Assembly: GCA_030748635.1 (NCBI GenBank)
Contig: JASMLP010000001.1
Span: 13,986 to 77,985, forward strand
Length of the DNA: 64,000 nucleotides
Direction of reading: 5' to 3'
From: Planctomycetota bacterium
Lineage (GTDB): Bacteria; Planctomycetota; JACQVV01; JASMLP01
Shown here piece after piece: positions 6,029-34,368 of this stretch (the first letter of the stretch is position 1; the number at the start of each line of letters is the position of its first letter). Both the position numbers and the translations under genes were made by a program. Below the pieces are notes generated by a model, which was not told the DNA's origin, searched no databases, and worked only from the letters and a program-made list of their open reading frames with translations.

Positions 6029-6625
6029 ATGAAACCACTCACTATCCTCACGGCGATTCTTCTCGCCTTCTCCTCCACCGCGTTCTCCCAAGATGCGCTC
6101 AAGGAGATCGACAACCCACTCCAGGATGCCCGCGAAGGGGACACCGTCGAATACTCGATCGAGAGCGTCCTGCTCGACAGCCCGGTCGGAAAGAACGAGA
6201 AACGGACCAACACATCCTCGCTCTCGGTCGTGGAAATCGATCGTCAGCTCGTCAAGCTCGAGGTCAAAAGCGACATCCGAGAAGGCTCGCAGACGATCAG
6301 CTTGACCAGTCGGGGAAGCATCGCCGACCTGCTCACCGGCGCCTACCAAGACGTCAACATCTCATCGAGTTCGGTCACCGAAGAAACCGTCGAATTCGAG
6401 GGGAAGAGCTACGTGTGCAAGGTCATTCACCTCAAGTTCACCGCAAAAACCAAACATATGGGCATGACGGTCCCCGTCAAGGTCGACCAGAAAGTCTGGT
6501 ATTCCAATGAGATCCCGGTCCATGGCCAGTTCAAATCGGTTATCGATATGGAAATGACCATCCTCGGCGACAAGAAGACGCACTTTCAGACCACCACCAC
6601 TCTCAAGTCTTTCACCGAGGGGTAG
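6029..6625 (+). CDS. Small secreted protein (198 aa) of unknown function
   Basis: N-terminal signal peptide MKPLTILTAILLAFSSTAFSQ. Coding-like composition. Followed directly by a perfect hairpin terminator. Confidence 0.6.
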   Translation: MKPLTILTAILLAFSSTAFSQDALKEIDNPLQDAREGDTVEYSIESVLLDSPVGKNEKRTNTSSLSVVEIDRQLVKLEVKSDIREGSQTISLTSRGSIADLLTGAYQDVNISSSSVTEETVEFEGKSYVCKVIHLKFTAKTKHMGMTVPVKVDQKVWYSNEIPVHGQFKSVIDMEMTILGDKKTHFQTTTTLKSFTEG

Positions 6626-6753: not shown

Positions 6754-6918
6754 ATGAAGTACCCAGCCCTACAATCCAAGCGTGCCGGCGCCGGCATGAC
6801 CGAGTACATCATCATCGTCATTCTCATTGCGATCGCTCTTATCGTGGTCGTGACCAATTTTGGTTACCGACTTCAGGATAAAGGCGCCGAAGCCACGATC
6901 GAGGTCCAAAAGCTCTAA
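6754..6918 (+). CDS. Flp/Fap-family (type IVb, Tad-type) prepilin, 54 aa; below the 60-aa cut-off of the supplied ORF track
   Basis: MKYPALQSKRAGAGMTEYIIIVILIAIALIVVVTNFGYRLQDKGAEATIEVQKL contains the Flp processing motif G/AGMTEY (E at +5, Y at +6) followed by a hydrophobic helix. A strong SD (AAGGAG) sits 5 nt upstream of the ATG. Confidence 0.65.
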   Translation: MKYPALQSKRAGAGMTEYIIIVILIAIALIVVVTNFGYRLQDKGAEATIEVQKL

Positions 6919-7002: not shown

Positions 7003-8802
7003 ATGAAGCTTCCAAAATCTCTCATTCAACCGTTCCTTCTCACGCTCGCGCTGAGCTTCGGGTGCCTCTTCCCGAACTCGGTCCAAGCTCAACAAGAAGA
7101 AGACAATGCTGAAGAACTCCGAAATCGCCGCCGGGAGCTGCTCAAGAAATTCGAGCGCTCCGACAGCAACTCATTCCGGGAACAGATCTACAAATATCTG
7201 ATCCGAATGCGGCTCAACGACAAGATCCGGGATCGAGCCAATTCGGACTACCTCCCCTCCGCCAGTGAAGTGGACGGATGGTTCGGGTGGGTTCCGGTTT
7301 CGAGCGCACTCGGACTGGGAGGCGCGCTCGCCAATGACGGGGACCTGAATGAGCGAGACATCCAGAAAGTCATCGGCCTCGTAGCCAAAGACGGAATCAC
7401 CCCCGAGGAGAAAGAGGACCTCCTCGACATCTACGACATGTACGGCGACACCATGACCACCGAGTCCCTCGAAGTCATGGAAGAGTTGATCGAAGGCGGT
7501 GACGATGAATCCAAGTACAAGCTGACCTCCAAGAATCCGACCTGGACCTCCACCTACTTCCCGATGGCCGGTAGCGGCATCGACGATGAAGGGGATTCCC
7601 AGGACAACCTCTGGGCCAAAGACGGCGCCATGCACAAGCTCGATAGCGTCATCGAGGAACGCACCGGCACTCGTGGCACCGCCTATGAAACCGAAAGCCG
7701 CCCCGCTCTGAACTGGCTTATCGGCGAGAAAAAGGGCTACTGGGTAGCCAACAGTCGGCTGAGCGAAAAAGACGCTGAACGGACCACCGGAGTCGACCTC
7801 AACCGAAACGGCAAGATCGATCCCGATGTCGAATGGGACTTCATCGATTCACGCGGCAACTTCGGCGAAGACGGCAAGAAGGACGGCACCATGGGCGTCG
7901 GCTGGTGGGGACGTTGCAACAACGTCGGGATCGCCGGCACACTATTCAAAGAGCCGAAGAAAGATGTCACCCTCAACGGCGTCACATTCACCGCGACCGA
8001 GATCAAAGGGCTTTTGTCTGTTTACAGCGACACGATCCTCAACTCCAAAGGCTCCGAATTCGAAGGCAGTCGTTACGACGACCGGCCCGATGAACTCGTC
8101 ACTCGAGACGGGAAACGCCTCTCGGGAGTGATTGAAAATGCTCGCGAACTTGACCTCGACGGCGAGGGCATGAAACGTTCGACCAACTACAGACACGGCG
8201 GAGACTACATCATTCTCGATGGCGACGCCCTGGAAGACCGAGGCAAAGACATTCGCTTCCGCGATCTCGCTACTGGCGAAGTCACCACCTATAAGCCCGA
8301 AGAGGTTCGCAGTGTGGCCAAGGAAGACTCCAAGCAGGACATCGAAGCCCGAGTCTTCCACAACAACATGACCGAATGGCTGGCGGACGGCCGGTCGGGT
8401 GTCCTCGAAATGGACCCGGGCAGCCATGTATGGAACTACAACTTCGAAAGCGCCGACATCCACGAAACCAAAACCCGCCCCCACTGGGCTCCGGAAGACC
8501 GTAAAGATCTACGCGGTTATGACGGCCCTCCGGGAGACGGCGAGATCACCTACGTTGAAGCGAGAATGCGGTATGACGGTGGAGGAAGCTCTCAGACCTA
8601 CCGCTACTGGATCGAGAAGAATCGCAGCGGCACAGTCGTCAACAGCGGCTGGAGCAGTAAGAACCCGGACTTCATGTGGCGAGCCAAGGAATCTGAAGTC
8701 GATTGGAGCCGCAAGGTTCCCGGCCACCCGAGCCTCGATGGTAACATCCTGCGTGAACTCTACGAAAAAAGCACCGCAGAAGATTCCTCCGACAACCAGT
8801 AA
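7003..8802 (+). CDS. Secreted protein of unknown function, paralogue B of the tandem family
   Basis: Signal peptide MKLPKSLIQPFLLTLALSFGCLFPNSVQA and the same conserved blocks as paralogue A. A 47-nt stretch (7794-7840) is identical at the DNA level to 4967-5013. Confidence 0.85.
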   Translation: MKLPKSLIQPFLLTLALSFGCLFPNSVQAQQEEDNAEELRNRRRELLKKFERSDSNSFREQIYKYLIRMRLNDKIRDRANSDYLPSASEVDGWFGWVPVSSALGLGGALANDGDLNERDIQKVIGLVAKDGITPEEKEDLLDIYDMYGDTMTTESLEVMEELIEGGDDESKYKLTSKNPTWTSTYFPMAGSGIDDEGDSQDNLWAKDGAMHKLDSVIEERTGTRGTAYETESRPALNWLIGEKKGYWVANSRLSEKDAERTTGVDLNRNGKIDPDVEWDFIDSRGNFGEDGKKDGTMGVGWWGRCNNVGIAGTLFKEPKKDVTLNGVTFTATEIKGLLSVYSDTILNSKGSEFEGSRYDDRPDELVTRDGKRLSGVIENARELDLDGEGMKRSTNYRHGGDYIILDGDALEDRGKDIRFRDLATGEVTTYKPEEVRSVAKEDSKQDIEARVFHNNMTEWLADGRSGVLEMDPGSHVWNYNFESADIHETKTRPHWAPEDRKDLRGYDGPPGDGEITYVEARMRYDGGGSSQTYRYWIEKNRSGTVVNSGWSSKNPDFMWRAKESEVDWSRKVPGHPSLDGNILRELYEKSTAEDSSDNQ

Positions 8803-8846: not shown

Positions 8847-10619
8847 ATGAAACGTAAGCGCCTAACAAGCAGATCCCGGCTCATCACGCTCTCATGCCTC
8901 GCCGCCACTCTCTGGAGCTTCCCGGCTCTGGGGCAAGAGCCGGAACTCGACGCGGCCACCAACGAGGCGTTGCGCGCGGAGAGAGAACGACTTATTGAGC
9001 GTTTCAATGCCACCGATTCTCGTTCCGAACGGCGAGCGATTCTCGAAGAACTCATCAAAATGAAGATGGACGACCGCGATCTGGACGTCGATGGACGGAT
9101 CCCCACCGCAGATGAAATTTCCGACTGGACGGGGACGATCGGGGTTTCCAACGCACTCGGCCTGGGAGCTCGCCTGGCCGACGATGGACGCCTGACTAAC
9201 CGCGACTTCCAGAACATCGCCGCTTTGGTTGCCAAAGACGGGGTTTCCAAGGAGGAGAAAAAAAGTCTCGCGGAACTAGTCGACCTCTACGGCGACACCA
9301 TGGGCAAAAGAACCCGGCGTCAATTCCGGAGCCTGATGCGCGACCGTTCATCCGCCTACACCGTTCGGACGAAGAACAAAACCTGGACTTCCAGCTACTT
9401 CCCGATGGCTGGCTGGAGCGCCAGCGACGAGGGATCTGCAAATCGCAACCTCTGGGCCAAAGACGGGGCCATGGCCAAAGTCGACAAGGTCATCGAGGCG
9501 CGCACCGGAGAGCCGGGAACAGCCCTCGAAACCGAACGTCGTCCCGCACTCAACTGGCTGGTCGACAAACCCACCGGCTATTACGTCCCCAGTTCGACGA
9601 TCCGGGAAAATGACGCGGAACGAACCACCGGAGTCGACTTCAACGGGAACGGTAAAATTGAAGACAACATCGAATGGGATTTCCTCGATTCACGCGGCAA
9701 CTTCGGCGAAGACGGAGAGAAGGACGGCACGATGAGTGTTGGCTGGTGGGGTCGTTGCAACAACGTAGGAATTGCCGGCACGCTGTTCAAAGAGCCCAAG
9801 AAGTCGGTTACCGTCGACGGAGTCACCTTCAGCGCAACCGAAATCAAGGGATTGCTGGCTGTCTACAGCGACACCATCGTCGATGCCAAGGGATCCGAAT
9901 TCCACGGCAACCGTTATGACGACCAACCCGACGTCATCGTAACCAAAGACGGGAAGGTCCACCGGGGAACCATCGAAAACGCTGGAGAACTGGACTTCTA
10001 TACCAACGGGATGTTCCGCCCCGGTCACCCTTCATGGAGTGACTTCACCATCCTCGACGCGAATGAACTCAAGCGTCAAGGCAAGGACATTGAATTCCGA
10101 AACATCGAAACCGGTGAAACCGAAACATTCAAGATTGACGACCTCAACCTCATCGGACGTGAAGACAAAAAACAAGACACCGAACCCATCGTGTTCCACA
10201 ACAACATGACCGAATGGTTGGCTGATGGTCGGGGCGGAGTACTCGAGATGGACCCGGGCAGCCATGTCTGGAACTACAACTTTGAAAGTGCCAACGTTCG
10301 GGAATCCACCCGCCGTCCCCGCTGGGCCCCACGCAAGAAAGAAGACCTCGTCGGATTCAACGGTCCTCCCGGAGAAGGTGAAATCACCTACGTATCAGCA
10401 CGCGTCAAATACAACGGGGGGGGTGGTACCCAAAACTACCGATACTGGATCGAACGAGATGAGGAAGGTAAAGTCCTCAACAGCGGCTGGATGAGCAAAA
10501 ACCCCGACTTCATGTGGCGCGCCAAGGAGACCAAGGTCGACTGGTCACGCGAAGTCCCCGGCCACCCCAGCCTCGACCCCGCGCTCATCAAAGAACTCTA
10601 CGAGAAGAGCACCGACTGA
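8847..10619 (+). CDS. Secreted protein of unknown function, paralogue C of the tandem family
   Basis: Signal peptide, and the same Cys (WWGRCNNVGIAGTLF) and His (GSHVWNYNFESA) blocks. Ca-loop variant DFNGNGKIEDNIEWDF. Confidence 0.85.
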   Translation: MKRKRLTSRSRLITLSCLAATLWSFPALGQEPELDAATNEALRAERERLIERFNATDSRSERRAILEELIKMKMDDRDLDVDGRIPTADEISDWTGTIGVSNALGLGARLADDGRLTNRDFQNIAALVAKDGVSKEEKKSLAELVDLYGDTMGKRTRRQFRSLMRDRSSAYTVRTKNKTWTSSYFPMAGWSASDEGSANRNLWAKDGAMAKVDKVIEARTGEPGTALETERRPALNWLVDKPTGYYVPSSTIRENDAERTTGVDFNGNGKIEDNIEWDFLDSRGNFGEDGEKDGTMSVGWWGRCNNVGIAGTLFKEPKKSVTVDGVTFSATEIKGLLAVYSDTIVDAKGSEFHGNRYDDQPDVIVTKDGKVHRGTIENAGELDFYTNGMFRPGHPSWSDFTILDANELKRQGKDIEFRNIETGETETFKIDDLNLIGREDKKQDTEPIVFHNNMTEWLADGRGGVLEMDPGSHVWNYNFESANVRESTRRPRWAPRKKEDLVGFNGPPGEGEITYVSARVKYNGGGGTQNYRYWIERDEEGKVLNSGWMSKNPDFMWRAKETKVDWSREVPGHPSLDPALIKELYEKSTD

Positions 10620-10671: not shown

Positions 10672-10702
10672 GGGCGGTCTATCCAGACCGCCCTCTTTTT
10701 TT
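10672..10702 (+). terminator. Rho-independent terminator GGGCGGTCT-atcc-AGACCGCCC followed by TCTTTTTTTG
   Basis: Perfect 9-bp GC-rich stem with a 4-nt loop, followed by a T7 run, 50 nt after the paralogue C stop codon. Confidence 0.8.
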
Positions 10703-10850: not shown

Positions 10851-13800
10851 CTACACCCGCTTGAGCACCGTAAGCGTCATGTCGTCATGCTGTTCCGCAT
10901 CCCCAACAAACCCCTCGATATCCTCGAACACCGACTCCACGAGTTCCCCCACATCCTTGGCTACATGACGCTTCAAGCTCTCCTTTAGACGATCGACCTC
11001 GAACATGGCCTCTTCGGAGTTGAGAGCTTCGCTGCATCCGTCGGTATAGAGCAACACCACATCACCTGGACTCAGATCGAGCTGTTTTTCCTGAATCATA
11101 TCGCCCACCTCGTCCTTGATCCCCAAGACGACTCCCCCGGCAGGGATCGCCTCGACAGTTTCGGTTTGAGAACGGTAGACCAGGAGATTTTCATGGCCAG
11201 CACCGGTATAGCAAATCGACTCTCCATCCCAGCGGACCAATAGCATCGACATGAAAACGAACGGTTCTGTATTCGCCTTCAGAATCCGGTTGGCCTCCAG
11301 CAAAACATCCCGGGTCGAAAGGTTCGACTCTGAAAGATGATGGAGCAACACCCGAGCCATCACCATCACCAACCCCGCCGGAACCCCCTTTCCACTGACA
11401 TCACCGATACAACTGAGGAGAGACTTCTGATCTTCTGAGAGGAGAAAGTCGTAGTAGTCGCCTCCGACCTTGCCTGCCGGGACCATCTTCCCATAGACCT
11501 CGAGACCGGCGATCTGAGGAATAACCTTGGGAAGCAGATTGGCTTGAATTCGACTGGCGATATTCAACTCCTGCTCAATCTTTTGCTTTTCCACCAACTC
11601 TTCGTAAAGAAACGCATTTTCCAGAGCGATGGCAACCTGATCGGCGAAGGCGACCAGAAGATCGAGGTCCCGGTCGGTAAACAGATCCTGGATAGATGGA
11701 TTGTCTACATACATCGCGCCGATAGTCTTGCCCTTCAAGGTGAAGGGGACGCAAAGGATACTCTTCAAACGCAAATTGCGAATCGACTCGGCCTGGAATT
11801 CCCCGTCCGCTTGCGCATCCGAGGTAAGCACCGGGTCTCCAGTCCGAATAACCTTGTGGACGATCGAGGTGCTCACCTCGAATTCAGGGTGATCGATCTG
11901 CTCTTTTTCCAGATTCCTCGCCGCCTTGAAAACAAACCCTTCATTTTCATCGCGGAGCATGAGAAAACCGCGCTCCGCGCGAATAACCTCCACCACGAGA
12001 TCCAAGACCATTTGAAACAATCGCTCACTATCTAGTGTGCTATTGATCACCTTGGTTACTTTTTGCAAAGCGAGAAGTCCAGTGCGCTCATCTCTGAGTT
12101 CTTCAACTTCGGCCAAAAGTGACTGATTCTTCCCCTCCAAAGCTTGCAGCTTTTGGGCCAAGGCCTCCTCGGAATCACGAATCCTTCTCTCGACATCCAG
12201 AATGAGTTCTTCAGCATTCATTAGCTTTACCTCGGCACGAATTCCTTCCAAAATATCATTAAAACTATCGGTAACCTCTAACTGAAGAGATCCGATTTCA
12301 TCGGAAAGGGCTCGCGAACGATCAGCCAGATCGAAGCGATGGTAGATCTCTTCTCGAGCCTTGAGAGACTCGCCCAAGAGCATCTGAGCCTTGCCGAGAA
12401 GATGATCTGCGCCCGCATCCTCAAAAATATCCCGGGCCTTTCGAAGATGATTGACCGCACTTTTTAGATATCCCCGATCACCCGCTTTTTCGGTCTCGAG
12501 CAAAAATCCCCCGTAGGCCAGATGAGTCCGTCCTTCCTCGAAGCGAGATCGAGTTCGGCCGAGCAAGACCAAGCTGGCCACGAAATGCTCAACCGCTTCA
12601 AGCCGGTAATTGTTAGCGATGCAAAAGAGTGCGTATTTTCGATACAAGATCCCCTGAAGGTTCTTCAAGTCCAGATCCTTCGATCGATCGAGGGCCTTGT
12701 TCAGAGTTTTGAGAGCCAGGCCGTGATTCCCCAACTTGATCAGAACATCCACGACACCGCTATAGACGGTTCCCAAAAGCCACTTCATCTGAACATCACG
12801 AAGCGTTTTTTCGGCCATAGCAAAAGAGGTCTTGGCCTTGCGATAAAGCCCCTCATCAGCAAACGCTTCACCCAAGTGGATGTAACAGATCCCAACAGCC
12901 CAAGGAACACGTGTGTCCTTGAATGTACGCATCGACTTGACCAGATATTCAACCGCCCTGGAAGCCTGCCCCTTCTTGACCAGGAGACGCCCAAGATTCA
13001 AACCACAGTAGGCTTCCGAAGATTTTCGTCCCATTTCCTGACTGCGCTCGATGGCCTGTTCATAGACCTCCTGAGCTCGGTCCAAGCGTCCATCCCACTC
13101 GAAAATCTGACCGATTCGGGCCTCGATCTCGACCATGTAAACACGGTCTCCAGTGAACTGGGCATGATAAAGCGCGTCCTCGAGAAATTTGTACGTAACC
13201 TCGAGGTCCCCATAGTGAAGATGAACACGCGCGATCCCGGCACTGATCCGTGACCTAAGATACCCCTCCCCTTCGGGGGGCAGTAGATCCAACGCGCGCT
13301 CCAGGTAGTTGATCGAGGTCGAAAACCGTCCCTGGAAAAAGTGGATGTCACCCAGATTTCCATAAATCGAGGCCAACAAGATCTCTCGGCCCGTACCTCG
13401 AACCAGTTCCAACGCCTCTTGAGCATAACGCTCACTCCGTCCGAGTTGACCTCGAGCCAGATAGATCCGTGAAATATGGTTAAGGACATCGGGGCGAACC
13501 TGCTGATCCTTGGACTCTTCCAGGAGACGCTTGAAACAACGCAAGGCTTCGTTGTACTGGTGTTTCCTGAAGTGCGCATAACCTAGGCCCTGAAGCGACT
13601 GATCCCGACTGTTTTCGGTTAGACCCGAACCAGTCAACGCTCGATTGTAAAACCGAATCGCTCGATCAAAATCGCCACCACGATTGTAAAGACTCCCGAG
13701 CTTTCCTTGGATCAATGCTCGACGCTCATCATCGCCAAGAGCCTCCGCGACCTCGATCCCTGTTTCGTAATAAGATGCCGCCCTCTGAGTCAGATAAGCC

Positions 13801-15950
13801 TTACGAAAACGATCGCCCAGATCGATGTACACATCCACAGCTCGATCTGGCCGACGGCTTCCACGATAGTGATGTGCCAGATTTTCAAGTTCAGACTCCT
13901 CCTGCTCGCCTTCTCGCCCCTCGAGATACGTCGCAATTCGATCGTGCAGCTTTTGCAAAGCCCGTCCCTTCGCATCCCAGGGACATAAATCCCTCAGTTG
14001 GGGAAAGACAGATCGATACTGAAGTCCTTCTGGCATCGAAATGGATTCGCACAGTTCAGCGCTCTCCAGATTTCCCAGAACAACTTTTGCCTGCGATTCT
14101 TTCAAACGTGTGATCTTCATGAGAAGGCCCAGATCACAGAGCGATCCGACCAGCGCCAAAGCCGACAACATCAACCGATCTTTCTTCTCCAGTTCCAACA
14201 CCCTATCTGGCAGTGAATTTTCGGAACGCAGAGGGCGCCTGATCTTCCGGACATCATCGACTTCGATCTGCCATTCACCACCCCGACGATAGATAAGTCC
14301 GTCCTCGGCAAGCCCATACATCGTTTCTTCGGCCAGAGCCGGATTCCCATCGGACAGTTCGGAAATCGCTTCGGGCAAGAACCCTGTGATCTCCTTCTGG
14401 TAAATCATGGATCCCAGAAAACTTCTCAAATCCTCTTGGCTCAACGGACCGATGTCGATTTCTTCCAGTATTCCCAGCGCTCTCCATTTCGGCAGAAACA
14501 ACTCGACTGGATGCTCTTTTCCTCCCCGAGGAAGTGGCCACGTACTCGAGGCCAGGAGCAATACCGGCCGATCAACCACCGCCTCTACCAGTTGCAAAAG
14601 AGTGTCGAAGTCCTCCTCCCCAAGCCGATCCAGATCATCGAGCAGGAGAACCACTGGCTGAGATTCAGAGAGGTAGGAGAAAAGACCCACCAGTTCGTGC
14701 GCCAAACGCTCCGGCGAAATATCTCCCTCTGGGCAAATACCTGACATCCAGGACCGCCGCCCCAATTCCGGCAGAAAATGAACCAGAGTTCCTCCCCATC
14801 GAGACGCGATTTCCGGCATCTGGTCCGGATTAGCCTGTTCGACATGAAGCAAACATTCCTGCGCCAAAATCACCAGCGACTCGAAAGGAGCCTCATGATG
14901 CTCAGAGCAGGAAACATGGGCAAGAATGACCGGCTCAGCGACCCACTCACCTCGGACCTCTTCCAGAATCCGAGTTTTCCCTACTCCGGTAACTCCCCGA
15001 ACCAGAACTCCTCGACAAGCCCCGCGTCGACACGAGACAAACGACTCTCGAATTTTGGCAAGAAGTGATTCACGACCCACAAAGCGGGGTCGATAGAGAT
15101 ACCGAGCCCCTTTTTCCGTACGGATGGCTGCGATTTCCGATCGTCCCGAAAGCTGTACCAGGTCCATCAGAAGTTCTTGTGCCGTCTGGTATCGATCTGC
15201 CGGGTCTTTCTCCAGGCAACGCAGGAGAATGCTCTCAAATCCTGGTGTCACATCCCGGTTGTACTTGGAGGGGGCAACCGCCTTGCTCTCGAGTTGCTTC
15301 ATCACAGCAGCCATCAGATCCCTGGATGTAAACGGCAGGCGCCCGGTGGCCAACTGATAAAACGTGACGCCGATACTGTAGATATCCGCTCGAGGATCGA
15401 CATCGAAACCCTTGATCAACTCGGGAGCCATGTATTCGATCGATCCCGCGATGTTGCTCTCACTGTCGTGAATCGATCGAGCCAAGTCGTGGGTCAAAGC
15501 GAAACCAAAATCCATCAACTTCACCGTCCCATCCGGAGTCACCCGGATATTCGCCGGCTTGAGGTCCCGATGAATGATTCCCTCGCAGTGGAAGTAATCG
15601 AGAGTTCGACAGATATCAGTCGCGATATCGATTACCCGCGGAATTCCTTCCTCGCCCAACTCTTCGTCCAGCCCTTTCCCGGGAACATACTCCATCGTGA
15701 AGTAGTTGCTGCCAAAATCGTACACCTTCACAATCCCTGGATGATCCAGTCGCGAAAGAGCCTCGAATTCCTCTCGAAGCCTCTGGAGATCTTTCTCTCG
15801 CTGAAGATCTTCTCGCAGCAACTTCAGGGCAATAGACTCCCCTTTCTGGCGATCGTGCACCAGATAGACAGTCCCCATTCCTCCCTCACCGAGAGTCCTT
15901 AATATTTCGTAACGGTCTTCGATAATCTGGCTTCGAGTCGATGTAGACAC
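10851..15950 (-). CDS. Giant multidomain signalling protein: N-terminal Ser/Thr protein kinase, then AAA/NB-ARC-like P-loop ATPase, TPR array, coiled coil, GAF domain and a C-terminal PP2C (SpoIIE-type) phosphatase
   Basis: Kinase motifs GEGGMGTVY, HRDLKPANI, DFG and APE. P-loop GVTGVGKT. Multiple TPR-like helices. A GAF-like region. The C-terminus carries the PP2C/SpoIIE metal-binding blocks GDVSGKGVPAG and YTDGCSEA. Confidence 0.85.
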   Translation of the reverse strand: MSTSTRSQIIEDRYEILRTLGEGGMGTVYLVHDRQKGESIALKLLREDLQREKDLQRLREEFEALSRLDHPGIVKVYDFGSNYFTMEYVPGKGLDEELGEEGIPRVIDIATDICRTLDYFHCEGIIHRDLKPANIRVTPDGTVKLMDFGFALTHDLARSIHDSESNIAGSIEYMAPELIKGFDVDPRADIYSIGVTFYQLATGRLPFTSRDLMAAVMKQLESKAVAPSKYNRDVTPGFESILLRCLEKDPADRYQTAQELLMDLVQLSGRSEIAAIRTEKGARYLYRPRFVGRESLLAKIRESFVSCRRGACRGVLVRGVTGVGKTRILEEVRGEWVAEPVILAHVSCSEHHEAPFESLVILAQECLLHVEQANPDQMPEIASRWGGTLVHFLPELGRRSWMSGICPEGDISPERLAHELVGLFSYLSESQPVVLLLDDLDRLGEEDFDTLLQLVEAVVDRPVLLLASSTWPLPRGGKEHPVELFLPKWRALGILEEIDIGPLSQEDLRSFLGSMIYQKEITGFLPEAISELSDGNPALAEETMYGLAEDGLIYRRGGEWQIEVDDVRKIRRPLRSENSLPDRVLELEKKDRLMLSALALVGSLCDLGLLMKITRLKESQAKVVLGNLESAELCESISMPEGLQYRSVFPQLRDLCPWDAKGRALQKLHDRIATYLEGREGEQEESELENLAHHYRGSRRPDRAVDVYIDLGDRFRKAYLTQRAASYYETGIEVAEALGDDERRALIQGKLGSLYNRGGDFDRAIRFYNRALTGSGLTENSRDQSLQGLGYAHFRKHQYNEALRCFKRLLEESKDQQVRPDVLNHISRIYLARGQLGRSERYAQEALELVRGTGREILLASIYGNLGDIHFFQGRFSTSINYLERALDLLPPEGEGYLRSRISAGIARVHLHYGDLEVTYKFLEDALYHAQFTGDRVYMVEIEARIGQIFEWDGRLDRAQEVYEQAIERSQEMGRKSSEAYCGLNLGRLLVKKGQASRAVEYLVKSMRTFKDTRVPWAVGICYIHLGEAFADEGLYRKAKTSFAMAEKTLRDVQMKWLLGTVYSGVVDVLIKLGNHGLALKTLNKALDRSKDLDLKNLQGILYRKYALFCIANNYRLEAVEHFVASLVLLGRTRSRFEEGRTHLAYGGFLLETEKAGDRGYLKSAVNHLRKARDIFEDAGADHLLGKAQMLLGESLKAREEIYHRFDLADRSRALSDEIGSLQLEVTDSFNDILEGIRAEVKLMNAEELILDVERRIRDSEEALAQKLQALEGKNQSLLAEVEELRDERTGLLALQKVTKVINSTLDSERLFQMVLDLVVEVIRAERGFLMLRDENEGFVFKAARNLEKEQIDHPEFEVSTSIVHKVIRTGDPVLTSDAQADGEFQAESIRNLRLKSILCVPFTLKGKTIGAMYVDNPSIQDLFTDRDLDLLVAFADQVAIALENAFLYEELVEKQKIEQELNIASRIQANLLPKVIPQIAGLEVYGKMVPAGKVGGDYYDFLLSEDQKSLLSCIGDVSGKGVPAGLVMVMARVLLHHLSESNLSTRDVLLEANRILKANTEPFVFMSMLLVRWDGESICYTGAGHENLLVYRSQTETVEAIPAGGVVLGIKDEVGDMIQEKQLDLSPGDVVLLYTDGCSEALNSEEAMFEVDRLKESLKRHVAKDVGELVESVFEDIEGFVGDAEQHDDMTLTVLKRV

Positions 15951-16106
15951 AGACGCCTCACCCAGACGGGCGGTCTTCCGGAAGTCCTAAAACAGCAAAG
16001 ATTTAGCAAGTCAATATAAAGCCGCATCGCCAGGCATGCAAATGCCGGAATTAGAGACCTCTTCTATCACCCCCCTTTCTGGCCTGTTCGAACCGCTTTC
16101 CCTACA

Positions 16107-16880
16107 ATGATTTTCCACACCATGATTCATATCGATCCACAGGCGAACCTCATCGAAATTTTCTCCGGAATTCAGGGAGAAGGCCTCCTCATCGGAGAGC
16201 GAATGGTCTTTGTGCGATTTACCGCCTGCAATCTCACGTGTGATTACTGTGACACCCCGATGGGACGCCCACTGGACACGGTCGTCCAAATCGAAAAGAC
16301 TCCGGGGCGTCGCGACTTTTCGACCCGGACGAACCCTCTAAAAGTCGCCGAAGTGACTCAATCCATCCGACAACTGACGCGATCAGCCGGACTCCATCGC
16401 TGGGTGACTCTGACCGGAGGAGAACCTCTCCTCTACCCGAAATTCCTCGAAGCCTTGATCCCCCATATCCAAGCCGCCGGCCTTCAGATCCAGCTCGAAA
16501 CCAACGGACATTTTCCTAAACGCCTGGAATCTGTAGGCCCAAACATCGATCTCATTGCTATGGATATCAAGGAGAAGTGCGACGGAGGTCAGCTCGAAAC
16601 CTCTCTCCGTTTCCTGGAAGTCGCCAAACTCAGCAGCCGGGTCTACCTGAAAATGGTTGTGCGACCGTCGCCAGATATTGCTCATTTTGTCCAAACAGCC
16701 CGATCCGTATCCCAAATCGACCCCAACATCCCGCTCGTACTCATGCCGGTCACCCCGTTTGGACCGATCCACTCGCCCCCAACTCCCCAGGAAATTCTCC
16801 ACCTCCAAGAACGCTTGCTTCAAGAGCATCGAGAAGTTCGAGTCATTCCTCAAACCCATAAGATCACGGGACAACTCTGA
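16107..16880 (+). CDS. queE: 7-carboxy-7-deazaguanine synthase-like radical SAM enzyme (QueE family)
   Basis: EIFSGIQGEGLLIGERMVFVRFTACNLTCDYCDT matches the QueE N-terminal block and its unusual Cx3Cx2C-type cluster motif. Size is about 250 aa. Confidence 0.7.
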   Translation: MIFHTMIHIDPQANLIEIFSGIQGEGLLIGERMVFVRFTACNLTCDYCDTPMGRPLDTVVQIEKTPGRRDFSTRTNPLKVAEVTQSIRQLTRSAGLHRWVTLTGGEPLLYPKFLEALIPHIQAAGLQIQLETNGHFPKRLESVGPNIDLIAMDIKEKCDGGQLETSLRFLEVAKLSSRVYLKMVVRPSPDIAHFVQTARSVSQIDPNIPLVLMPVTPFGPIHSPPTPQEILHLQERLLQEHREVRVIPQTHKITGQL

Positions 16881-16882
16881 CA

Positions 16883-17644
16883 GTGTCGATTTCGGTCGAA
16901 AAGCTCTACAAGGTGTTCCAAGATCCCCAACAACCCGAAGTGGCCGCGGTGGACCGAATCGAATTTCAGGTACGAGCGGGCGAAATTTTCGGCCTACTTG
17001 GCCCCAACGGAGCGGGCAAAACCACCACCCTTCGAATGCTGGCCACCCTGCTGCGCCCGACCAGCGGTTCCGCTTCCATTGCCGGACACGACCTTTGGAA
17101 AAACCCTTCTCACGTTCGAAGATCGATCGGTTACCTTTCCGCCGATTCTGGGGTCTACGACCGCTTGACTCCACGCGAAATCGTCGAACATTTCGGTCAG
17201 CTTTACGGCCTCTCTCGCAGCCAGGTACGAGACCGAACCGAAGAACTGTTCGAACATTTCTCTATGGGTGCTCATAGCGATCGATTGTGCATGCATCTTT
17301 CCTCCGGCATTCGGCAGAAAGTATCGATCATTCGATCCCTCGTTCACTCTCCCCCTGTCCTCCTGCTGGACGAACCGACTCGATCACTCGACATTCTAGT
17401 CGCTCGAACTGTAACGGACTTTATCCGACAAGCACGTCAACGTGGGTCCTGTATCCTGCTCTCCACCCACGACATGAACGAAGCTTCATCGTTGTGTGAT
17501 TCTTTTGCCATCCTTCACCGTGGACGGATCCTAGCCCAAGGCGCCACTCACGAGTTAGAAACCCGTTTCGGCGGAAAAAGCCTGGAACAGCTTTTTTTCC
17601 ACACAATCGAACACGATCGAGGCGTTCCGCGTGTTTCGAAATAG
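16883..17644 (+). CDS. ABC transporter ATP-binding protein (ABC-2/NatA type), GTG start
   Basis: Walker A GPNGAGKTTT, the ABC signature LSSGIRQK, and Walker B LLLDEP. Confidence 0.85.
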   Translation: MSISVEKLYKVFQDPQQPEVAAVDRIEFQVRAGEIFGLLGPNGAGKTTTLRMLATLLRPTSGSASIAGHDLWKNPSHVRRSIGYLSADSGVYDRLTPREIVEHFGQLYGLSRSQVRDRTEELFEHFSMGAHSDRLCMHLSSGIRQKVSIIRSLVHSPPVLLLDEPTRSLDILVARTVTDFIRQARQRGSCILLSTHDMNEASSLCDSFAILHRGRILAQGATHELETRFGGKSLEQLFFHTIEHDRGVPRVSK

Positions 17645-19745
17645 TTGGATCGTATTCCGGAGGGAACTGCTGGAAACCGTCCGCGACCGCCGGACTCTCT
17701 TCGTGATGTTCATCTTACCGGTTGTTCTCTACCCCCTACTCCTGCTCGGTCTGAGCCAAATCCTCGTTCACCAAAAACTGTCCATAAAAAAAACGACCAC
17801 CTCCATCGCTCTCAGCGGAGCTCCAGAAGATCTCGCGATCCACCTACAAACTCAATCCAGAGGACACTCCTTCCAGACACTGGACATCCCCAATCCTCGC
17901 CAGGCACTCGCGGAAGGAACCGTCAGTATCTGGATCTCATGGCAAGAAGGCGACGATCCCCCCCCCCAGTTGACCATCCATTACAGCGGAACCCGCGAAG
18001 ACTCTCGATTGGCCCAAAAACAAGTCGTTTCCCTTGTCAAAGAGTATCGACGCCAGAAAGTCGTCCACCGACTTCAAAATGAGCTAGGGACAGACGAGAG
18101 CTTATTGAGACCGTTTCAGATCGCTCGACAGAACATCGAGTCGAGCGAGCGCCAGGCAGGATTCATGCTGGGAAGAGTGCTCTCCTTGCTCCTGGTTCTC
18201 ATGTCCGTATTCTTTCCCTTCTACCCTGCCATCGACAGTGCCGCAGGAGAGAAGGAGCGAGGAACCCTCGAAACACTCCTCGTCTCCCCGGTGAAACGAA
18301 GGGAAATCGTCACCGGGAAATACGCTTCAATCTTTACCATTGCCATGGTCGGTAGCCTACTCAACCTTGCGAGTATGGGATTAACGTTCACGCACTTCAC
18401 CCACCTCGTGAATGTGATGAAGCAAGAGGCCCAGAACTCCGCCATTCTCGAATCCTCTCCCGACCCCACGACCTCGTCTGAAAAAACGACTCCGGTCGAA
18501 GATGGAATTGTAGAAGAGTACATGCAGATCAGGCTCGACTTGACACCGGCGATTTTGCTCCAGATCCTCCTCATCCTCACCCCTTTATGTGGACTCCTGT
18601 CAGCGGTCAGCCTTGCACTCTCCACGTACGCAAGAAGCTACAAGGAAGCTCAATACTACCTAACCCCACTCTCTCTGGCTGTCTTGCCGCTTGCCTTGAT
18701 CGGACTCATTCCGGGCGCTGAACTCGATGGATTCAATGCCCTCATTCCGATCACCGGGCCGGTACTTCTCTTTCAGTCTTTATTCCTGGGAAGTGCGCCT
18801 CCTCTTTTCTTCGGACTTGTTCTTGGCAGTACGATCTTCTACGGAGCCCTTTCCCTGCATATCACTCGAAAACTGTTCGAGGATGAAGAGATCCTCTTCA
18901 GAGAGGGAACGCTCTGGACCTGGCGGTTCTGGCAGTACAGTCCCCATCGAGGAAAAGCTCCCGGCCCCTCCCAAGCTTTACTACTTCTGGGCATGGCGTT
19001 TCTTTCGCTCTGGTATGTAGGCCAACCCTTGCAACTTCACCATCTCGCCTGGGGAATCGCCTTCAGCCAAATCGTACTGTTTCTCGGCGGAACCCTCGCC
19101 ATATGTCACCTCTATCGGTTCCCCATCAAAAAAACCCTTTCCTTGTACCGCCCACGAGCCATCCATCTGCTGGGGAGCCTACTTCTGGGCATCGGAGGCT
19201 TTCTCATCGGCCGTCAAGTCCTCCATGGACAGATCCTCCTCTTTCCCCAGATGCCCGAAATGATGCATCAAATGGGGAGTGATTTTTCCATTTTATTCGA
19301 ACAAGTCCCCCCGTTCGGTGTTCTGATCCTGCTCACGATTGTGCCCGCAATCTGCGAAGAAACCGTCTTTCGTGGTTTCATCCTGAATTCTTTGGTCGAT
19401 AAAAACCGTCGACCCCTCGCCGCCCTTTTTCTCTCCGCAGCGACCTTCGCTTTCTTACACCTCTCTCTGATCCGATTCCCCTTTACTTTCACTCTGGGAG
19501 TGTTTTTGGGACTTGGCGTCCTCCTTTCCGGAAGCCTCTATGTCGGTATCGTGGCCCACTTCATATCCAACGTCCTGGCCCTGGCTTCCCCACACCTTCC
19601 CATCGACTCACTCGACAATCCCAATCTCTCCTTGCCTACCTGGCTTCTTTTCCTCGCGGTGATTTTGATTCTCGTCTCCACGTTCCTTTTGAAAAGCGAC
19701 AAACGCCCGGACCCAACCGACCCGTCTTGCCCGAAGCTTACCTGA
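17631..19745 (+). CDS. Fusion of an ABC-2 family permease with a C-terminal CPBP (CAAX protease/Abi) intramembrane glutamic endopeptidase domain; GTG start overlapping the ATPase gene by 14 nt
   Basis: The N-terminal half is polytopic, with the ABC-2 permease pattern (EKERGTLETLLVSP). The C-terminal half carries all three CPBP motifs: EETVFRG, FAFLH and HFISN. Confidence 0.75.
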   Translation: MFRNSWIVFRRELLETVRDRRTLFVMFILPVVLYPLLLLGLSQILVHQKLSIKKTTTSIALSGAPEDLAIHLQTQSRGHSFQTLDIPNPRQALAEGTVSIWISWQEGDDPPPQLTIHYSGTREDSRLAQKQVVSLVKEYRRQKVVHRLQNELGTDESLLRPFQIARQNIESSERQAGFMLGRVLSLLLVLMSVFFPFYPAIDSAAGEKERGTLETLLVSPVKRREIVTGKYASIFTIAMVGSLLNLASMGLTFTHFTHLVNVMKQEAQNSAILESSPDPTTSSEKTTPVEDGIVEEYMQIRLDLTPAILLQILLILTPLCGLLSAVSLALSTYARSYKEAQYYLTPLSLAVLPLALIGLIPGAELDGFNALIPITGPVLLFQSLFLGSAPPLFFGLVLGSTIFYGALSLHITRKLFEDEEILFREGTLWTWRFWQYSPHRGKAPGPSQALLLLGMAFLSLWYVGQPLQLHHLAWGIAFSQIVLFLGGTLAICHLYRFPIKKTLSLYRPRAIHLLGSLLLGIGGFLIGRQVLHGQILLFPQMPEMMHQMGSDFSILFEQVPPFGVLILLTIVPAICEETVFRGFILNSLVDKNRRPLAALFLSAATFAFLHLSLIRFPFTFTLGVFLGLGVLLSGSLYVGIVAHFISNVLALASPHLPIDSLDNPNLSLPTWLLFLAVILILVSTFLLKSDKRPDPTDPSCPKLT

Positions 19746-20035
19746 GGAATCGAGCAGAACTCCCACGAGGACCCGGCCCCAACAAAAGCGTAAGAATATA
19801 AATAGAAACAACTTACGGATATTCGAGACTAAAAACCAGCTCGTCTGCACCCCATTTTCTGGACCCGACCCCTCGCCATGAATTCCGAAACGGATCGCTA
19901 CAGAGAACCCACCCGGCTCCGCCTCCGCCCCCGCGCCCGAGTCCAGAGGCTCCGCCGAGAGTGTCGGCACCTGGATCCAACCTCGAATTGAAAGCTTCCG
20001 AATCGCGGGTTTATCGACGCAAGTCTTTGATGTGC

Positions 20036-20065
20036 TTGACAGAATCGATTCTCCGGTGCTACGAT
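20036..20065 (+). promoter_or_regulatory. Sigma-70-like promoter TTGACA-N18-TACGAT
   Basis: A consensus -35 hexamer and a near-consensus -10 hexamer lie about 35 bp upstream of the 20100 start codon. Confidence 0.45.
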
Positions 20066-20099
20066 CCCGCCTTTTATCGATCCAGCCGAGGGAATTTAG

Positions 20100-21830
20100 A
20101 TGCAACAGCGGCTCAGCGCACTGCTCATCGCGCTTTCGACCGTCCTGGTAACCGTCTGCTCTGCCGACGAAAGCTTCATTACGCCCAAGGAATTGAAGCG
20201 TGGAGACCGGGGATACGGTCTTTCGGTTTTCGAAGGAACCCGGATCGAAAAATTTGACGTTGAAGTCATCGATGTAATCGAAAAGTCACTTCCTTCTCAG
20301 GACATGGTTCTGATCAGAATCTCTCGACACGGAGAGGGATTTGATGTGGCTCGCTCCGGCGTCATCGCCGGCATGAGTGGCAGTCCGATCTACATCCGAG
20401 GGAGATTGCTCGGCGCACTAGCTTACGGCTGGGGATTCCAGAAAGGATCCACCGCGGGAGTCACTCCCATTTCCAACATGATCGCGGATATGAATCGACC
20501 TCTGGAAAAAGCGTCCGGTACTCCCAGGCCCATTCACTGGGGTGAATCCTCCATTCGCCCTTGCGTCACCCCGATTCTGATATCCGGAGCGTCGCCTCAC
20601 ACGCTCTCCCAATTTCGAAAACAGTTCGAACAGCACGGATTCTTGCCTGTTCTCGGCGGTGGCAATGCGGCAAAACCCAACGCAAACGACAAACGAGTTC
20701 GTCTCGAACCAGGGTCGGCCATCGGCGTAAATTTAATGACTGGCGACATGTCCTTCACAGCCATTGGAACCGTCACTCACGTCGACAAGGTCTCCGGAAA
20801 AGTCCTCGCCTTTGGTCATCCCTTCTTCCAGGCGGGACCGGTACAACTCCCGATGACAACAGCCCGAGTCCACACTGTCATCGAGAGCCTCTCTTCTTCG
20901 TTCAAGCTTGGAAGCAGCATCCAGAGCGTTGGCACCCTGATCGCCGACCGGCAAGCTTCGATCGTTGGCCAGGTCGGAGAATCGCCCAAAATGATTCCGA
21001 TCGAGTTCACCGTTCGCAACCAGATGACCCAGGCCAAAAATACGTACCGCTGCCAGGTGGTAGATCATCATTTATGGACCTCCATCCTGATCAACATGGC
21101 TCTGAGCAATTTCGCCAATGCTGCCGACCCGTCTTTTGGCCCGAACACCAAGACGGTTCGGATGAGTTTACGTTTTCGAGGACATGAGCCTATCGAGTTC
21201 CAGGACACCTTCTCGGGCAGCCTATCCACCTTCTCCTCCAGGCTCCTCTCTCCCCTTTCCGCCCTGCTCAACAATCCTTTCAAACGAGTTCACCTGGAAG
21301 GAGCGGAGGTCAGCATGGAACTGGCCCACGAAAACCGAGCGGCGCAAATCACCTCCATCCTTCTTCAGGATCGTGAAGTAGAAGATGGCCAGACCGTTTA
21401 CTTTCGAGTGGTCCTGGAGGGCTATGACCGGAAACCCTATGTCGCGAAGATGTCGGTTCCCATCCCCCGTAATCTCCCCCCGGGTCGCTACACACTCCAA
21501 GTCTCCGGTGGTCACCAGAGTTCTCCCAATCTCCCTCGCCCACGATCCATCGAAGATCTCGTGCGATTGATTCATTCCGTGGGTAAAGGACAACAAATTG
21601 TCGCCTCCCTAAAAATCCCAAAAATGACTCTTTATCACCAAAGCAAACCGTTCAAAGATCTGCCTCCGTCCGTGCTAGGAACCTTACTCGCCTCCAACCG
21701 ATCCGCCGATCTCCAGATTCAAACAGATCAGGTTGTCCGAACCATTGACACGCCGCTGGTCGTTTCCGGTCGAGCATCCATCACCCTCGATGTCCGAGAA
21801 AGTACACATCAACATGCAACTCCTCGCTAA
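20100..21830 (+). CDS. Secreted protein with a serine-hydrolase-like GMSGSPIY motif (possibly a peptidase S55/SpoIVB-related fold); function uncertain
   Basis: Signal peptide MQQRLSALLIALSTVLVTVCSA. The GMSGSP motif resembles the S55/S7-type nucleophile elbow, but the motif order relative to His/Asp could not be confirmed. Confidence 0.4.
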   Translation: MQQRLSALLIALSTVLVTVCSADESFITPKELKRGDRGYGLSVFEGTRIEKFDVEVIDVIEKSLPSQDMVLIRISRHGEGFDVARSGVIAGMSGSPIYIRGRLLGALAYGWGFQKGSTAGVTPISNMIADMNRPLEKASGTPRPIHWGESSIRPCVTPILISGASPHTLSQFRKQFEQHGFLPVLGGGNAAKPNANDKRVRLEPGSAIGVNLMTGDMSFTAIGTVTHVDKVSGKVLAFGHPFFQAGPVQLPMTTARVHTVIESLSSSFKLGSSIQSVGTLIADRQASIVGQVGESPKMIPIEFTVRNQMTQAKNTYRCQVVDHHLWTSILINMALSNFANAADPSFGPNTKTVRMSLRFRGHEPIEFQDTFSGSLSTFSSRLLSPLSALLNNPFKRVHLEGAEVSMELAHENRAAQITSILLQDREVEDGQTVYFRVVLEGYDRKPYVAKMSVPIPRNLPPGRYTLQVSGGHQSSPNLPRPRSIEDLVRLIHSVGKGQQIVASLKIPKMTLYHQSKPFKDLPPSVLGTLLASNRSADLQIQTDQVVRTIDTPLVVSGRASITLDVRESTHQHATPR

Positions 21831-33066: not shown

Positions 33067-34368
33067 TCATTCTTTACGAAAGCGCTTTCGCAAAGAACTC
33101 CACCATCGAGTATGTTTTCGCCCAACTGGGGCCAAGCTCTCCACCTCAACTTCCTCCTGCTGGGCGAGAAGGATCGCTTGCTCAAACTCCCCTCCATCCG
33201 CATATCGATCCTCTGGAGAGTGGCGAGTTGCATGGAAACACACTCGAGCGAGGCCGGAGTCGACACGACTCTCTTCTCCTCCCGGCTCATAGCCGTCCTG
33301 AGAGAGGATAAACCGAACCGCCTCCAGCGGCGTACGACCCTGGTGAGGCAGTCGCCCCCTCAACGAGTAGTAGAGCATAATCCCCAGCGCATACACATCC
33401 GATGCCGGCCCCACTCGCTCCATTTCCCCCTCCAACTGTTCGGGAGACATATAACTGGGCGTTCCTATCTTCTGCCCCATCTGAGTCAAAACCGTTGAAC
33501 CGTCGATCTCTTTGGCCAGCCCGAAGTCCGTCACCCGAGGGCTCTGTTCCCCATCCAAGAGCACATTCGCCGGCTTGAGATCTCGGTGAACAACCCCCTG
33601 ATCGTGGGCTGCCCCAACTCCCGAAGCGATTCCACGAATGATCTCGACCGCCTCAACCCGATCAAAAGAGCCCGCAAGATACGAGTCAAAATTGTGACCT
33701 TCCAGGTATTCCAAGACGAGAAAAGGAGGCTGAGAACGCATATCAAAGTCGACCACTTCCACAATATGCTCATGCTTCAAGCTGGAAAGAAGGCGCGCTT
33801 CACGTTCGAATCGTTTAATCAAAATTTCATCGTCCCGATCGAACCGAAGGACCTTCAAAGCAACCGATCGGTCGTGCTTGGGATCTCGCGCCAAATACAC
33901 CTCACCCACCGCGCCCATTCCCAAGACCCACTGCGGCTCATAGTGCCCGATTCGAGCAGGAATACTTCTCTCCCTCGCCTGCGTAGGCTTCTCTTCCCGC
34001 ACTGTCTCGTCATTCTTCAGGCTGGAAGTAACCTCGATCAACTCGTAATTCATCCCACATTCACGACAGACTTGCCCACTACCATCGCCCCCCACAAGCG
34101 TTCTGCCGCAACCCAAGCAGCCAAGCAGATGGCCATTCGACTTTTTCAGAAGCCGAACCAGATCCTCAACCATCAACGATTTACGCCGGAACAACACCTG
34201 ATGCAAAAGTATGGGACGCCCAGCATCCTTGCGACGTTGCCATTCTCCCAACGCGCCAGCGAGAATCTCCGCGGAGACAATCCGCTCCCGCAACAAGACT
34301 GCCGAGAGGTGTTCAACCCCAGATTCTTCGATGTTATTCACGACCCCAGTGTTGTCTTCCAGGAACAA
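33067..34368 (-). CDS. Ser/Thr protein kinase with an N-terminal Cys4 zinc-ribbon-like segment
   Basis: CLGCG...CRECG, then kinase motifs HRDLKPANVLL, DFG and SPE. Confidence 0.85.
   Translation of the reverse strand: MFLEDNTGVVNNIEESGVEHLSAVLLRERIVSAEILAGALGEWQRRKDAGRPILLHQVLFRRKSLMVEDLVRLLKKSNGHLLGCLGCGRTLVGGDGSGQVCRECGMNYELIEVTSSLKNDETVREEKPTQARERSIPARIGHYEPQWVLGMGAVGEVYLARDPKHDRSVALKVLRFDRDDEILIKRFEREARLLSSLKHEHIVEVVDFDMRSQPPFLVLEYLEGHNFDSYLAGSFDRVEAVEIIRGIASGVGAAHDQGVVHRDLKPANVLLDGEQSPRVTDFGLAKEIDGSTVLTQMGQKIGTPSYMSPEQLEGEMERVGPASDVYALGIMLYYSLRGRLPHQGRTPLEAVRFILSQDGYEPGGEESRVDSGLARVCFHATRHSPEDRYADGGEFEQAILLAQQEEVEVESLAPVGRKHTRWWSSLRKRFRKE

Follow-up and report, generated by a model that had tools for sequence, protein, structure and literature searches.

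The stretch of DNA analyzed here, hereafter called the window, comprises 64,000 nucleotides of contig JASMLP010000001.1 from a Planctomycetota metagenome-assembled genome (MAG). The MAG is marine, as indicated by TARA mesopelagic cluster members of the neighboring proteins. On its reverse strand, positions 10851–15950 are occupied by one open reading frame (ORF) of 1,699 codons and a stop, for which GTG is the start codon and no longer alternative exists. The encoded protein consists of a Hanks-type kinase, an AAA_16/STAND NTPase, a tetratricopeptide-repeat (TPR) solenoid, a long helix, a GAF domain, and a SpoIIE/RsbU-type PP2C phosphatase, in this order (Table 1). A single 1699-aa polypeptide with this succession of domains had been proposed in an initial annotation made from the DNA letters, and the single ORF and the Pfam searches, in which all five domains gave strong E-values, bear this out.

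Table 1. Positions of the gene and of the features of its product (window coordinates; residues of the 1,699-aa protein)
Feature	Residues	Positions	Strand	Basis or remark
Complete ORF, 1,699 aa		10851..15950	-	Monocistronic; convergent with 8847-10619(+), divergent from 16107-16880(+)
Shine-Dalgarno-like GGTGAGG		15956..15962	-	5 nt upstream of GTG; read from sequence
Hanks-type Ser/Thr kinase	14-260	15171..15911	-	Pfam Pkinase, PknB alignment
STAND nucleotide-binding oligomerization module (NOD)	~276-660	13971..15125	-	P-loop nucleotide-binding domain (AAA_16), helical domain, winged helix
Walker A GVTGVGKT	319-326	14973..14996	-	Sequence motif
Walker B VVLLLDDLD	433-441	14628..14654	-	On beta-strand in model
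TPR/MalT-like helical-repeat sensor	~661-1200	12351..13970	-	Pfam, model, ~27 helices
Continuous 59-residue helix	1246-1304	12039..12215	-	AlphaFold; candidate dimerizing coiled coil into GAF
GAF domain	1306-1444	11619..12035	-	Pfam, PDB sequence and fold matches
47-residue GAF-to-PP2C linker helix	1426-1472	11535..11675	-	AlphaFold, conservation
SpoIIE/RsbU-type PPM (PP2C)	1509-1698 (Pfam); fold from ~1483	10857..11426	-	Pfam, motifs, fold

The public JGI gene call (P0001) is 1,675 aa long and begins at Met25 (window position 15878), a start that cuts away the N-terminus of the kinase ahead of the G-loop. The sequence GGGAGGA, which is the probable ribosome-binding site behind that call, is made up of codons of the G-loop itself. 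Most of residues 1–24 are accounted for by the alignment with PknB, which starts at residue 8–9, by the Pkinase profile, which starts at residue 14, and by the N-termini of homologues. Because of this coverage and the GGTGAGG motif upstream, the GTG at 15950 is most likely the better start.

An identical protein with the same neighbors was present on independent JGI and Logan contigs, i.e. it has been assembled separately at least twice, and orthologues of 38–42% identity were collinear with it from end to end, across every domain junction. An assembly chimera or a frameshift fusion is ruled out by these two observations, and the fusion is real. No transmembrane segment or signal peptide was found in the 1,699-aa protein. 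A reading as membrane receptor was rejected, as the sole hydrophobic peak (residues 593–611) belongs to the winged-helix region, where it forms a buried helix. Searches against NCBIfam gave sub-threshold partial matches only (PknB-like kinase, SiaA phosphatase) and no curated equivalog, and a promoter and terminator scan gave nothing above chance.

The kinase domain matched the Pfam Pkinase profile with an E-value of 7.7e-50 (170 bits; cut-off 31.7), and its closest sequence match in the PDB was Mycobacterium tuberculosis PknB (E = 5e-50), with all motifs aligned. The motifs are complete, comprising the G-loop GEGGMG, Lys43 (IALK), Glu61, Asp129 and Asn134 of HRDLKPAN, Asp147 of DFG, and APE, and the activation loop holds Thr153, Ser159, Ser163, Ser165, and Ser170. 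The domain has the features of a Hanks-type kinase and is, on the basis of these residues, predicted to be catalytically intact.

For the central part of the protein, Pfam gave an AAA_16 match at residues 289–465 (E = 6.6e-17; 62.9 bits; cut-off 32.6), and TPR_12, TPR_MalT, and related models covered residues ~700–1110. AlphaFold models were made of the monomer only, one for residues 276–1200, which was built on 57 homologues, and one for residues 1190–1699. The former (pLDDT 92.1, pTM 0.74) showed a P-loop alpha/beta domain, a helical domain, hairpin-bearing winged-helix elements, and then ~27 repeat helices. When this model was compared with the PDB by Foldseek, the closest fold was that of PH0952 (6mfv; E = 8e-13, 783 aligned columns); other matches were Cdc6/Orc1 and Apaf-1, and the remainder were TPR proteins. 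A single-sequence PDB search (phmmer) with the NOD region gave no significant match. Both the order of the modules (nucleotide-binding domain, helical domain, winged helix, repeat sensor) and their fold are those of a STAND protein, and the P-loop and the STAND-like character assigned to the NTPase in the initial annotation were thereby confirmed. The Walker A lysine is kept in 22 of 25 proteins of the same architecture. Gly535 and Pro537 (GNP, GxP-like) and His669 (LHD) were invariant in a five-sequence alignment, and may represent the nucleotide contacts of the STAND helical and winged-helix domains.

The model of residues 1190–1699 (pLDDT 90.2) contained the long helix, the GAF domain, the 47-residue helix, and the PPM fold, in that order. 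The first helix showed a moderate heptad bias, with 65% hydrophobic residues at the a/d positions vs 41% overall. Thus, of the coiled coil postulated earlier in front of the GAF domain, the helicity of residues 1246–1304 is supported by the model, and the coiled coil itself stays a candidate. The GAF domain was confirmed by the GAF_2 profile (E = 1.2e-20, 74.6 bits; the GAF model gave 68.8 bits) and by its fold. It matched the sequences of the PmGH and PDE5 GAF domains in the PDB, and its fold matched those of the Lcd1 GAF domain and 4mcw. The NKFDE motif of cyclic-nucleotide (cNMP) binding was not present when the sequence of the GAF domain was read directly.

The C-terminal region had been predicted to be a PP2C, and it matched the SpoIIE profile with 142 bits (cut-off 25; E = 2.5e-41) and displayed the PPM fold. 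Its metal-binding motifs, which align with those of Pseudomonas aeruginosa SiaA and RssB, are complete: GGDYYD (Asp1498, Asp1501), GDVSGKG (Asp1517), YTDG (Asp1637), and HDDMT (Asp1689, Asp1690). Together with the kinase lysine of the VAIK motif (Lys43) and the HRD Asp129, the catalytic residues expected at the two ends of the protein are therefore all present. The closest solved folds were those of RssB and SiaA (TM-score ~0.8 for both), SpoIIE, the RsbU domain of Rv1364c (3ke6), and RsbX. PstP, Stp, PppA, and tPphA, which represent the PP2C type that normally partners Hanks kinases, ranked below these SpoIIE/RsbU-type folds. The phosphatase is of the partner-switching type and not of the type usually paired with Hanks kinases.

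We tallied the C-terminal domains of the 120 top-scoring full-length homologues from their Pfam annotations and found them to differ. The NOD was common to 85 and the GAF domain to 76 of these homologues, and approximately 76 carried kinase, NOD, TPR, and GAF at near-identical positions in front of differing outputs; the distance from the start of the NOD to the GAF domain was ~790–1,110 residues in 70 of the 71 proteins having both. The outputs were HisKA/HATPase_c (~19), sigma-54 AAA+ with HTH_8 (~42), GGDEF (~6), SpoIIE (5), HD/HD-GYP (4), and GerE (1), and several proteins had none, among them the PknK-type kinase-NOD-TPR proteins P0017, P0093, P0117, and P0120. Homologues of ~2,020 aa with kinase, AAA_16, TPR, GAF, and a histidine kinase output were among the closest. 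The helix that closes the GAF domain (consensus AIENA.LY) was kept whichever output came after it. We thus have here a generic and widespread kinase-NOD-TPR-GAF chassis with exchangeable outputs, of which the PP2C of the present protein is one among several. In a tree of the NOD, members with PP2C output fell into several clades, interleaved with sigma-54, histidine kinase, GGDEF, and GerE forms; the tree was made by neighbor-joining without support values and has very deep branches, and the scatter is suggestive only.

Parts of this chassis have been known since 2005, namely a kinase with a MalT-like region (PknK) and a kinase with TPR and GGDEF (a 1,826-aa protein of C. thermocellum) (PMC1262709). 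Cyanobacterial STK-GAF-HisK 'dual kinases' such as HstK have also been described (PMC1262709, PMC2176072). Literature searches for the SpoIIE-output form or the exact architecture retrieved no paper describing it, in agreement with the earlier statement that such fusions are poorly characterized.

To see how widespread the PP2C-output form is, we used residues 500–1699 as the query against 1.84 billion cluster representatives, and the best 150 matches were dissected segment by segment with phmmer. Only the query itself, P0132, P0003, and P0133 were collinear over all 1,200 residues. At least 20 further proteins among the 150, of 1,497–2,025 (most of them 1,685–1,740) residues, had the kinase, usually the NOD, the GAF domain, and the PP2C in the same order, and for four of these 20 the five-domain architecture was confirmed by Pfam. 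Proteins of the PP2C form accordingly make up at least 24 clusters when grouped at 50% identity and come from at least five phyla, the named sources being Gemmatimonadota, Kiritimatiellia, Acidobacteriota, and Lentisphaerae/Verrucomicrobia MAGs, and they carry no annotation beyond 'SpoIIE family protein phosphatase' or 'GAF domain-containing protein'. The description of such fusions as rare holds as far as only ~5 of the 120 best full-length homologues carry SpoIIE, and it does not hold in view of the 20 or more further 50%-identity clusters; the architecture is a minority output, yet recurrent and phylogenetically broad. A contig scan with the family alignment, in which generic kinase motifs had been picked as patterns, returned mostly unrelated Hanks kinases, and only the hits L021 (Acidobacteriota) and L079 (Ca. 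Eisenbacteria) reached the C-terminus.

The two catalytic domains differed in their conservation when proteins of the same architecture were aligned. The metal-binding motifs of PP2C were invariant in 25 of 25 proteins. Of 23 kinases compared, eight (P0137, P0170, P0189, P0192, P0203, P0205, P0206, and P0233) had lost the HRD aspartate, most of them together with the G-loop, the lysine, or the DFG aspartate. In these eight the Pkinase profile still matched, although more weakly and without the start of the N-lobe, and the AAA_16 scores were strong; they are predicted to retain a non-catalytic Hanks domain on the STAND chassis. Six of the eight formed one clade on the neighbor-joining tree of the NOD. 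Where named, these relatives came mostly from MAGs of the PVC group (Kiritimatiellia, Lentisphaerae/Verrucomicrobia). Seven other kinases of the set were non-RD but had the catalytic aspartate, and the canonical form occurred in the clade of the query and in a small number of other proteins. Both enzymes were fully intact in all five members of the query clade (the query, P0132, P0002, P0003, and P0133).

A comparison of the query with its three closest orthologues showed that the linker helix, residues 1426–1472, is the best-conserved segment (55–76% identity), together with the GAF domain (52–60%) and PP2C (53–58%) on its two sides. Identity was 46–48% in the kinase, 31–34% in the TPR region, and 25–36% in the NOD, and the TPR sensor was judged to be the fastest-diverging part among orthologues. 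The pattern fits a constrained output combined with lineage-specific sensing. The GAF-PP2C tail as a whole was 55–58% identical to those of the three orthologues. Over the C-terminal 420 residues it was 38–51% identical to many stand-alone GAF-PP2C proteins of 420–660 aa, and 28–43% (median 36%) identical to the tails of other full-architecture clades. Since the stand-alone proteins are as close to the tail as those of the other clades, or closer, the identities are compatible with an exchange of the tail as a cassette.

Taken together, we assign a probability of about 0.5 to the explanation that the protein integrates signals in the cytoplasm as a soluble member of the PknK/MalT-type STAND class, and that its conserved catalytic output is the RsbU/SpoIIE-type PP2C and its kinase a second effector or a regulatory arm. 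Two published mechanisms bear on how such a protein may work. RsbU is activated by dimerization through a coiled-coil or helical linker, and it has been proposed that through linkers of this kind PPM, GGDEF, and histidine kinase outputs can exchange their GAF, PAS, and REC sensors (PMC12143880). STAND proteins with TPR sensors (PH0952, MalT) are ADP-bound, autoinhibited monomers at rest, and form multimers upon binding of the inducer and exchange of ADP for ATP (PMC6468293). The anatomy and the conservation of the present protein fit a combination of the two.

From this fit we infer a sequence of events involving oligomerization, activation of the phosphatase in dimers, and gating by a ligand. 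In the resting state the NOD would hold ADP and be kept closed through contacts with the TPR sensor. Binding of an inducer, either a protein or a small molecule, to the TPR solenoid would lead to exchange of ADP for ATP and to multimerization, which would bring the C-terminal helix-GAF-helix-PP2C arms together in parallel dimers. The rigid linker helix of 47 residues would then transmit the ligand state of the GAF domain to the switch helices of PP2C and so turn the phosphatase on or off, a mode of control that has been shown for RsbU and proposed for PPMs linked to GAF, PAS, or REC domains. The same multimerization would bring the N-terminal kinases together and allow trans-autophosphorylation, and the kinase could act as a second effector, as a regulatory or scaffolding arm, or both. 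The substrate of the phosphatase would be encoded elsewhere in the genome, and would most likely be a phospho-Ser/Thr regulator, for instance a STAS-type antagonist of partner switching; less likely candidates are the phosphorylated kinase of the same polypeptide and further substrates of Hanks kinases.

Several observations weigh against the signal-integrator explanation. The 64-kb window encodes neither a STAS protein nor RsbW, a HATPase_c anti-sigma factor, or a partner of the SiaB/C type, and accordingly contains no adjacent pair of STAS and RsbW-like genes that would make up a partner-switching module. There were likewise no conserved neighbors and no adjacent STAS/RsbW-like gene at the three orthologue loci inspected. 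All 78 chassis proteins with outputs other than PP2C keep the Lys/Asp/Asp of the kinase, but they were retrieved with a kinase-containing query, so the sample is biased against pseudokinases and cannot show that these are specific to the PP2C branch. In addition, the intact pair of enzymes in the query clade leaves room for a functional coupling between kinase and phosphatase there. Both the gene in the window and that of P0002 have an ABC-2 transporter gene nearby, which was judged a coincidence rather than conserved synteny. At the locus of P0003 (L084/L085, 6335–8661), a response-regulator gene and a gene for a REC-SpoIIE phosphatase follow directly downstream; this second PP2C-type output beside the family member has no counterpart in the window.

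The initial annotation saw in the protein a self-contained phospho-switch. According to this explanation, kinase and PP2C act antagonistically on the protein's own sites (activation loop or linker) or on one shared substrate, and the STAND/TPR and GAF inputs set the ratio of kinase to phosphatase activity, giving a self-resetting timer or a bistable switch. The intact catalytic centers in the query clade, where the kinase is fairly conserved (39–48% identity), and the several Ser/Thr residues of the activation loop are in line with it, and precedents exist in the single-chain regulators Rv1364c and OsaC, which combine a kinase with an RsbU-type phosphatase (PMC12143880), and in the PP2C-Hanks kinase fusions of Pseudomonas (PMC1262709). 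Three results argue against it. The same chassis with an intact kinase carries non-phosphatase outputs where PP2C sits in the query; the kinase is thus no specific partner of a phosphatase, and PP2C is not its dedicated antagonist. In eight of the 23 proteins of this architecture, a predicted pseudokinase stands beside a PP2C that has all its metal ligands. The ranking of folds, finally, places PP2C in the SpoIIE/RsbU subfamily, whose characterized substrates are phosphorylated by GHKL-type kinases and not by Hanks kinases. The two enzymes are thus probably not an obligatory antagonist pair, and we regard the phospho-switch, which finds no support in the form in which it was stated, as doubtful.

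It is also conceivable that the kinase is the main output, as in PknK, and that the GAF-PP2C tail serves solely as an intramolecular regulator, holding it in the dephosphorylated state as long as the phosphatase is not inhibited by a GAF ligand. The intact kinase of the query and the existence of PknK-type homologues without any output would agree with such an arrangement, but it is PP2C, and not the kinase, that is the invariant catalytic element throughout the family; the GAF domain, the linker, and PP2C are the best-conserved parts; and the stand-alone GAF-PP2C proteins, up to 51% identical to the tail, work without a kinase. We therefore consider a kinase-centered function unlikely. That the protein is an Avs-like antiviral STAND, whose TPR region would sense a phage protein and whose abortive-infection effector would be the kinase, the phosphatase, or both, is very improbable: Avs proteins have a similar succession of effector, STAND NTPase, and TPR sensor, and the kinase domain scores against PADLOC kinase models such as PD-T4-6, mad6, and PglW, but the best 25 of the 35 PADLOC matches are all generic Hanks-kinase matches within residues 1–284, with no STAND or Avs model among these 25, the gene lies in a housekeeping neighborhood devoid of defense and mobile-element genes, and the GAF domain and the exchangeable second-messenger and transcription outputs of its relatives point to physiological signaling.

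Among characterized proteins, M. tuberculosis PknK shares with the signal integrator proposed here the first three modules in the same order, the cytoplasmic and soluble nature, and the STAND-type regulatory region; it ends past the TPR region at ~1,100 aa, and is not known to have a coiled coil, GAF domain, or second catalytic domain. PH0952 and MalT resemble the protein in the Walker A and B motifs, in the order from nucleotide-binding domain through helical and winged-helix domains to TPR, in the TPR_MalT match, and in the fold (6mfv being the closest), whereas their effector is DNA-binding and the sequence similarity is below detection by phmmer. RsbU, RsbP, Clostridioides difficile RsbZ (GAF-GAF-PPM), SiaA, and RssB have in common with it the phosphatase subfamily and fold, as well as a sensor joined to the PPM domain by a long helix, but they contain neither a Hanks kinase nor a STAND NTPase and are usually encoded in partner-switching operons, of which there is none here.

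PknK has been classed as 'Kinase + MalT-like' (PMC1262709). The HstK-type dual kinases, compared here by their published description, likewise begin with a Hanks kinase, contain a GAF domain internally, and end in a second signaling enzyme, but this enzyme is a histidine kinase (HisKA-HATPase_c) and not PP2C (PMC2176072, PMC1262709). Rv1364c and Streptomyces OsaC unite a kinase, an RsbU-type PP2C, and PAS/GAF sensing on one chain (PMC12143880); their kinase, however, is a GHKL RsbW-type anti-sigma kinase, STAND and TPR modules are lacking, and Rv1364c has its own STAS substrate domain. In the Pseudomonas fusions a Ser/Thr phosphatase and a Hanks kinase are encoded by one gene (PMC1262709, PMC12088040), but the PP2C, which Krupa and Srinivasan (2005) relate to the Stp1 type, is N-terminal and tethered directly to the kinase, without STAND, TPR, or GAF.

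The neighborhood of the gene is of a housekeeping character, with UvrB, LepA, LigA, Fmt, RsmB, signal peptidases, and a PurB-like protein, and no defense genes, integrases, or other mobile-element genes were found in the 64 kb. In the 231-nt convergent gap beyond the 3′-end of the gene, positions 10672–10693 form a strong GC-rich hairpin (9-bp stem with seven G-C pairs) followed by a T-run, which is likely to be the terminator of 8847–10619(+) and is possibly bidirectional. That ORF is one of three paralogues (4133–5989(+), 7003–8802(+), and 8847–10619(+)) of ~590–618 aa, which lie within ~6.5 kb in the same orientation and all match TGase_elicitor (transglutaminase elicitor) weakly, at an internal position common to the three. 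Interleaved with them are a 54-aa Flp/Fap pilin-like ORF (~6754–6918(+)) and a 198-aa ORF without family match (6029–6625(+)). These genes may form a cluster for secreted or surface proteins. On the other side, divergent from the kinase-phosphatase gene, 16107–21830(+) encodes a 257-aa radical-SAM protein (from 16107), an ABC ATPase, a 704-aa fusion of an ABC-2 permease with a CAAX Rce1-like protease, and a SpoIVB-like S55 peptidase, a set resembling clusters for peptide maturation, export, or immunity.

The window contains two more intact-looking Hanks kinases, one of 433 aa (33067–34368(-)) and one of 781 aa with HEAT repeats (54600–56945(+)), which brings the total to three Ser/Thr kinases in the 64 kb. 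Such a density is typical of Planctomycetota, where large multidomain Ser/Thr kinases are to be expected. A further cytoplasmic second-messenger signaling protein, a 724-aa PAS-PAS-GGDEF-EAL, is encoded at 44753–46927(+). Two adjacent signal peptidase I (S26) paralogues, 35814–37283(-) and 37293–39044(-), are unusually long (489 and 583 aa). The GC skew was negative in all 2-kb bins (-0.03 to -0.29) and the cumulative skew fell monotonically, so the window lies within one replichore and includes no origin or terminus.

With its PP2C output, the protein is an uncharacterized version of a known chassis; it is not a singular case but belongs to a recurrent family, and none of the results contradicts current understanding or changes a paradigm. 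In the query clade, oligomerization of the STAND module could conceivably activate a Hanks kinase together with an RsbU-type phosphatase in one particle, although we consider this improbable. If it were true, Hanks kinases and partner switching, which are otherwise separate worlds of Ser/Thr phospho-signaling, would be physically coupled. The phosphatase would then reset the trans-autophosphorylated kinase or clear a STAS-like target phosphorylated by the kinase, and in either case the result would be an autonomous pulse or timer, the duration of which would be set by the GAF ligand.

For the family as a whole, the finding amounts to a natural experiment in modular signaling, with one Hanks kinase/STAND/TPR/GAF chassis and one conserved helix serving at least six outputs. 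RsbU-type phosphatases, GGDEF cyclases, and histidine kinases have been proposed to draw on an 'exchangeable toolkit' of this kind, which is here extended to a STAND switch. The clade of predicted pseudokinases, standing beside lineages with active kinases, could reveal what the kinase domain contributes to such signaling hubs.

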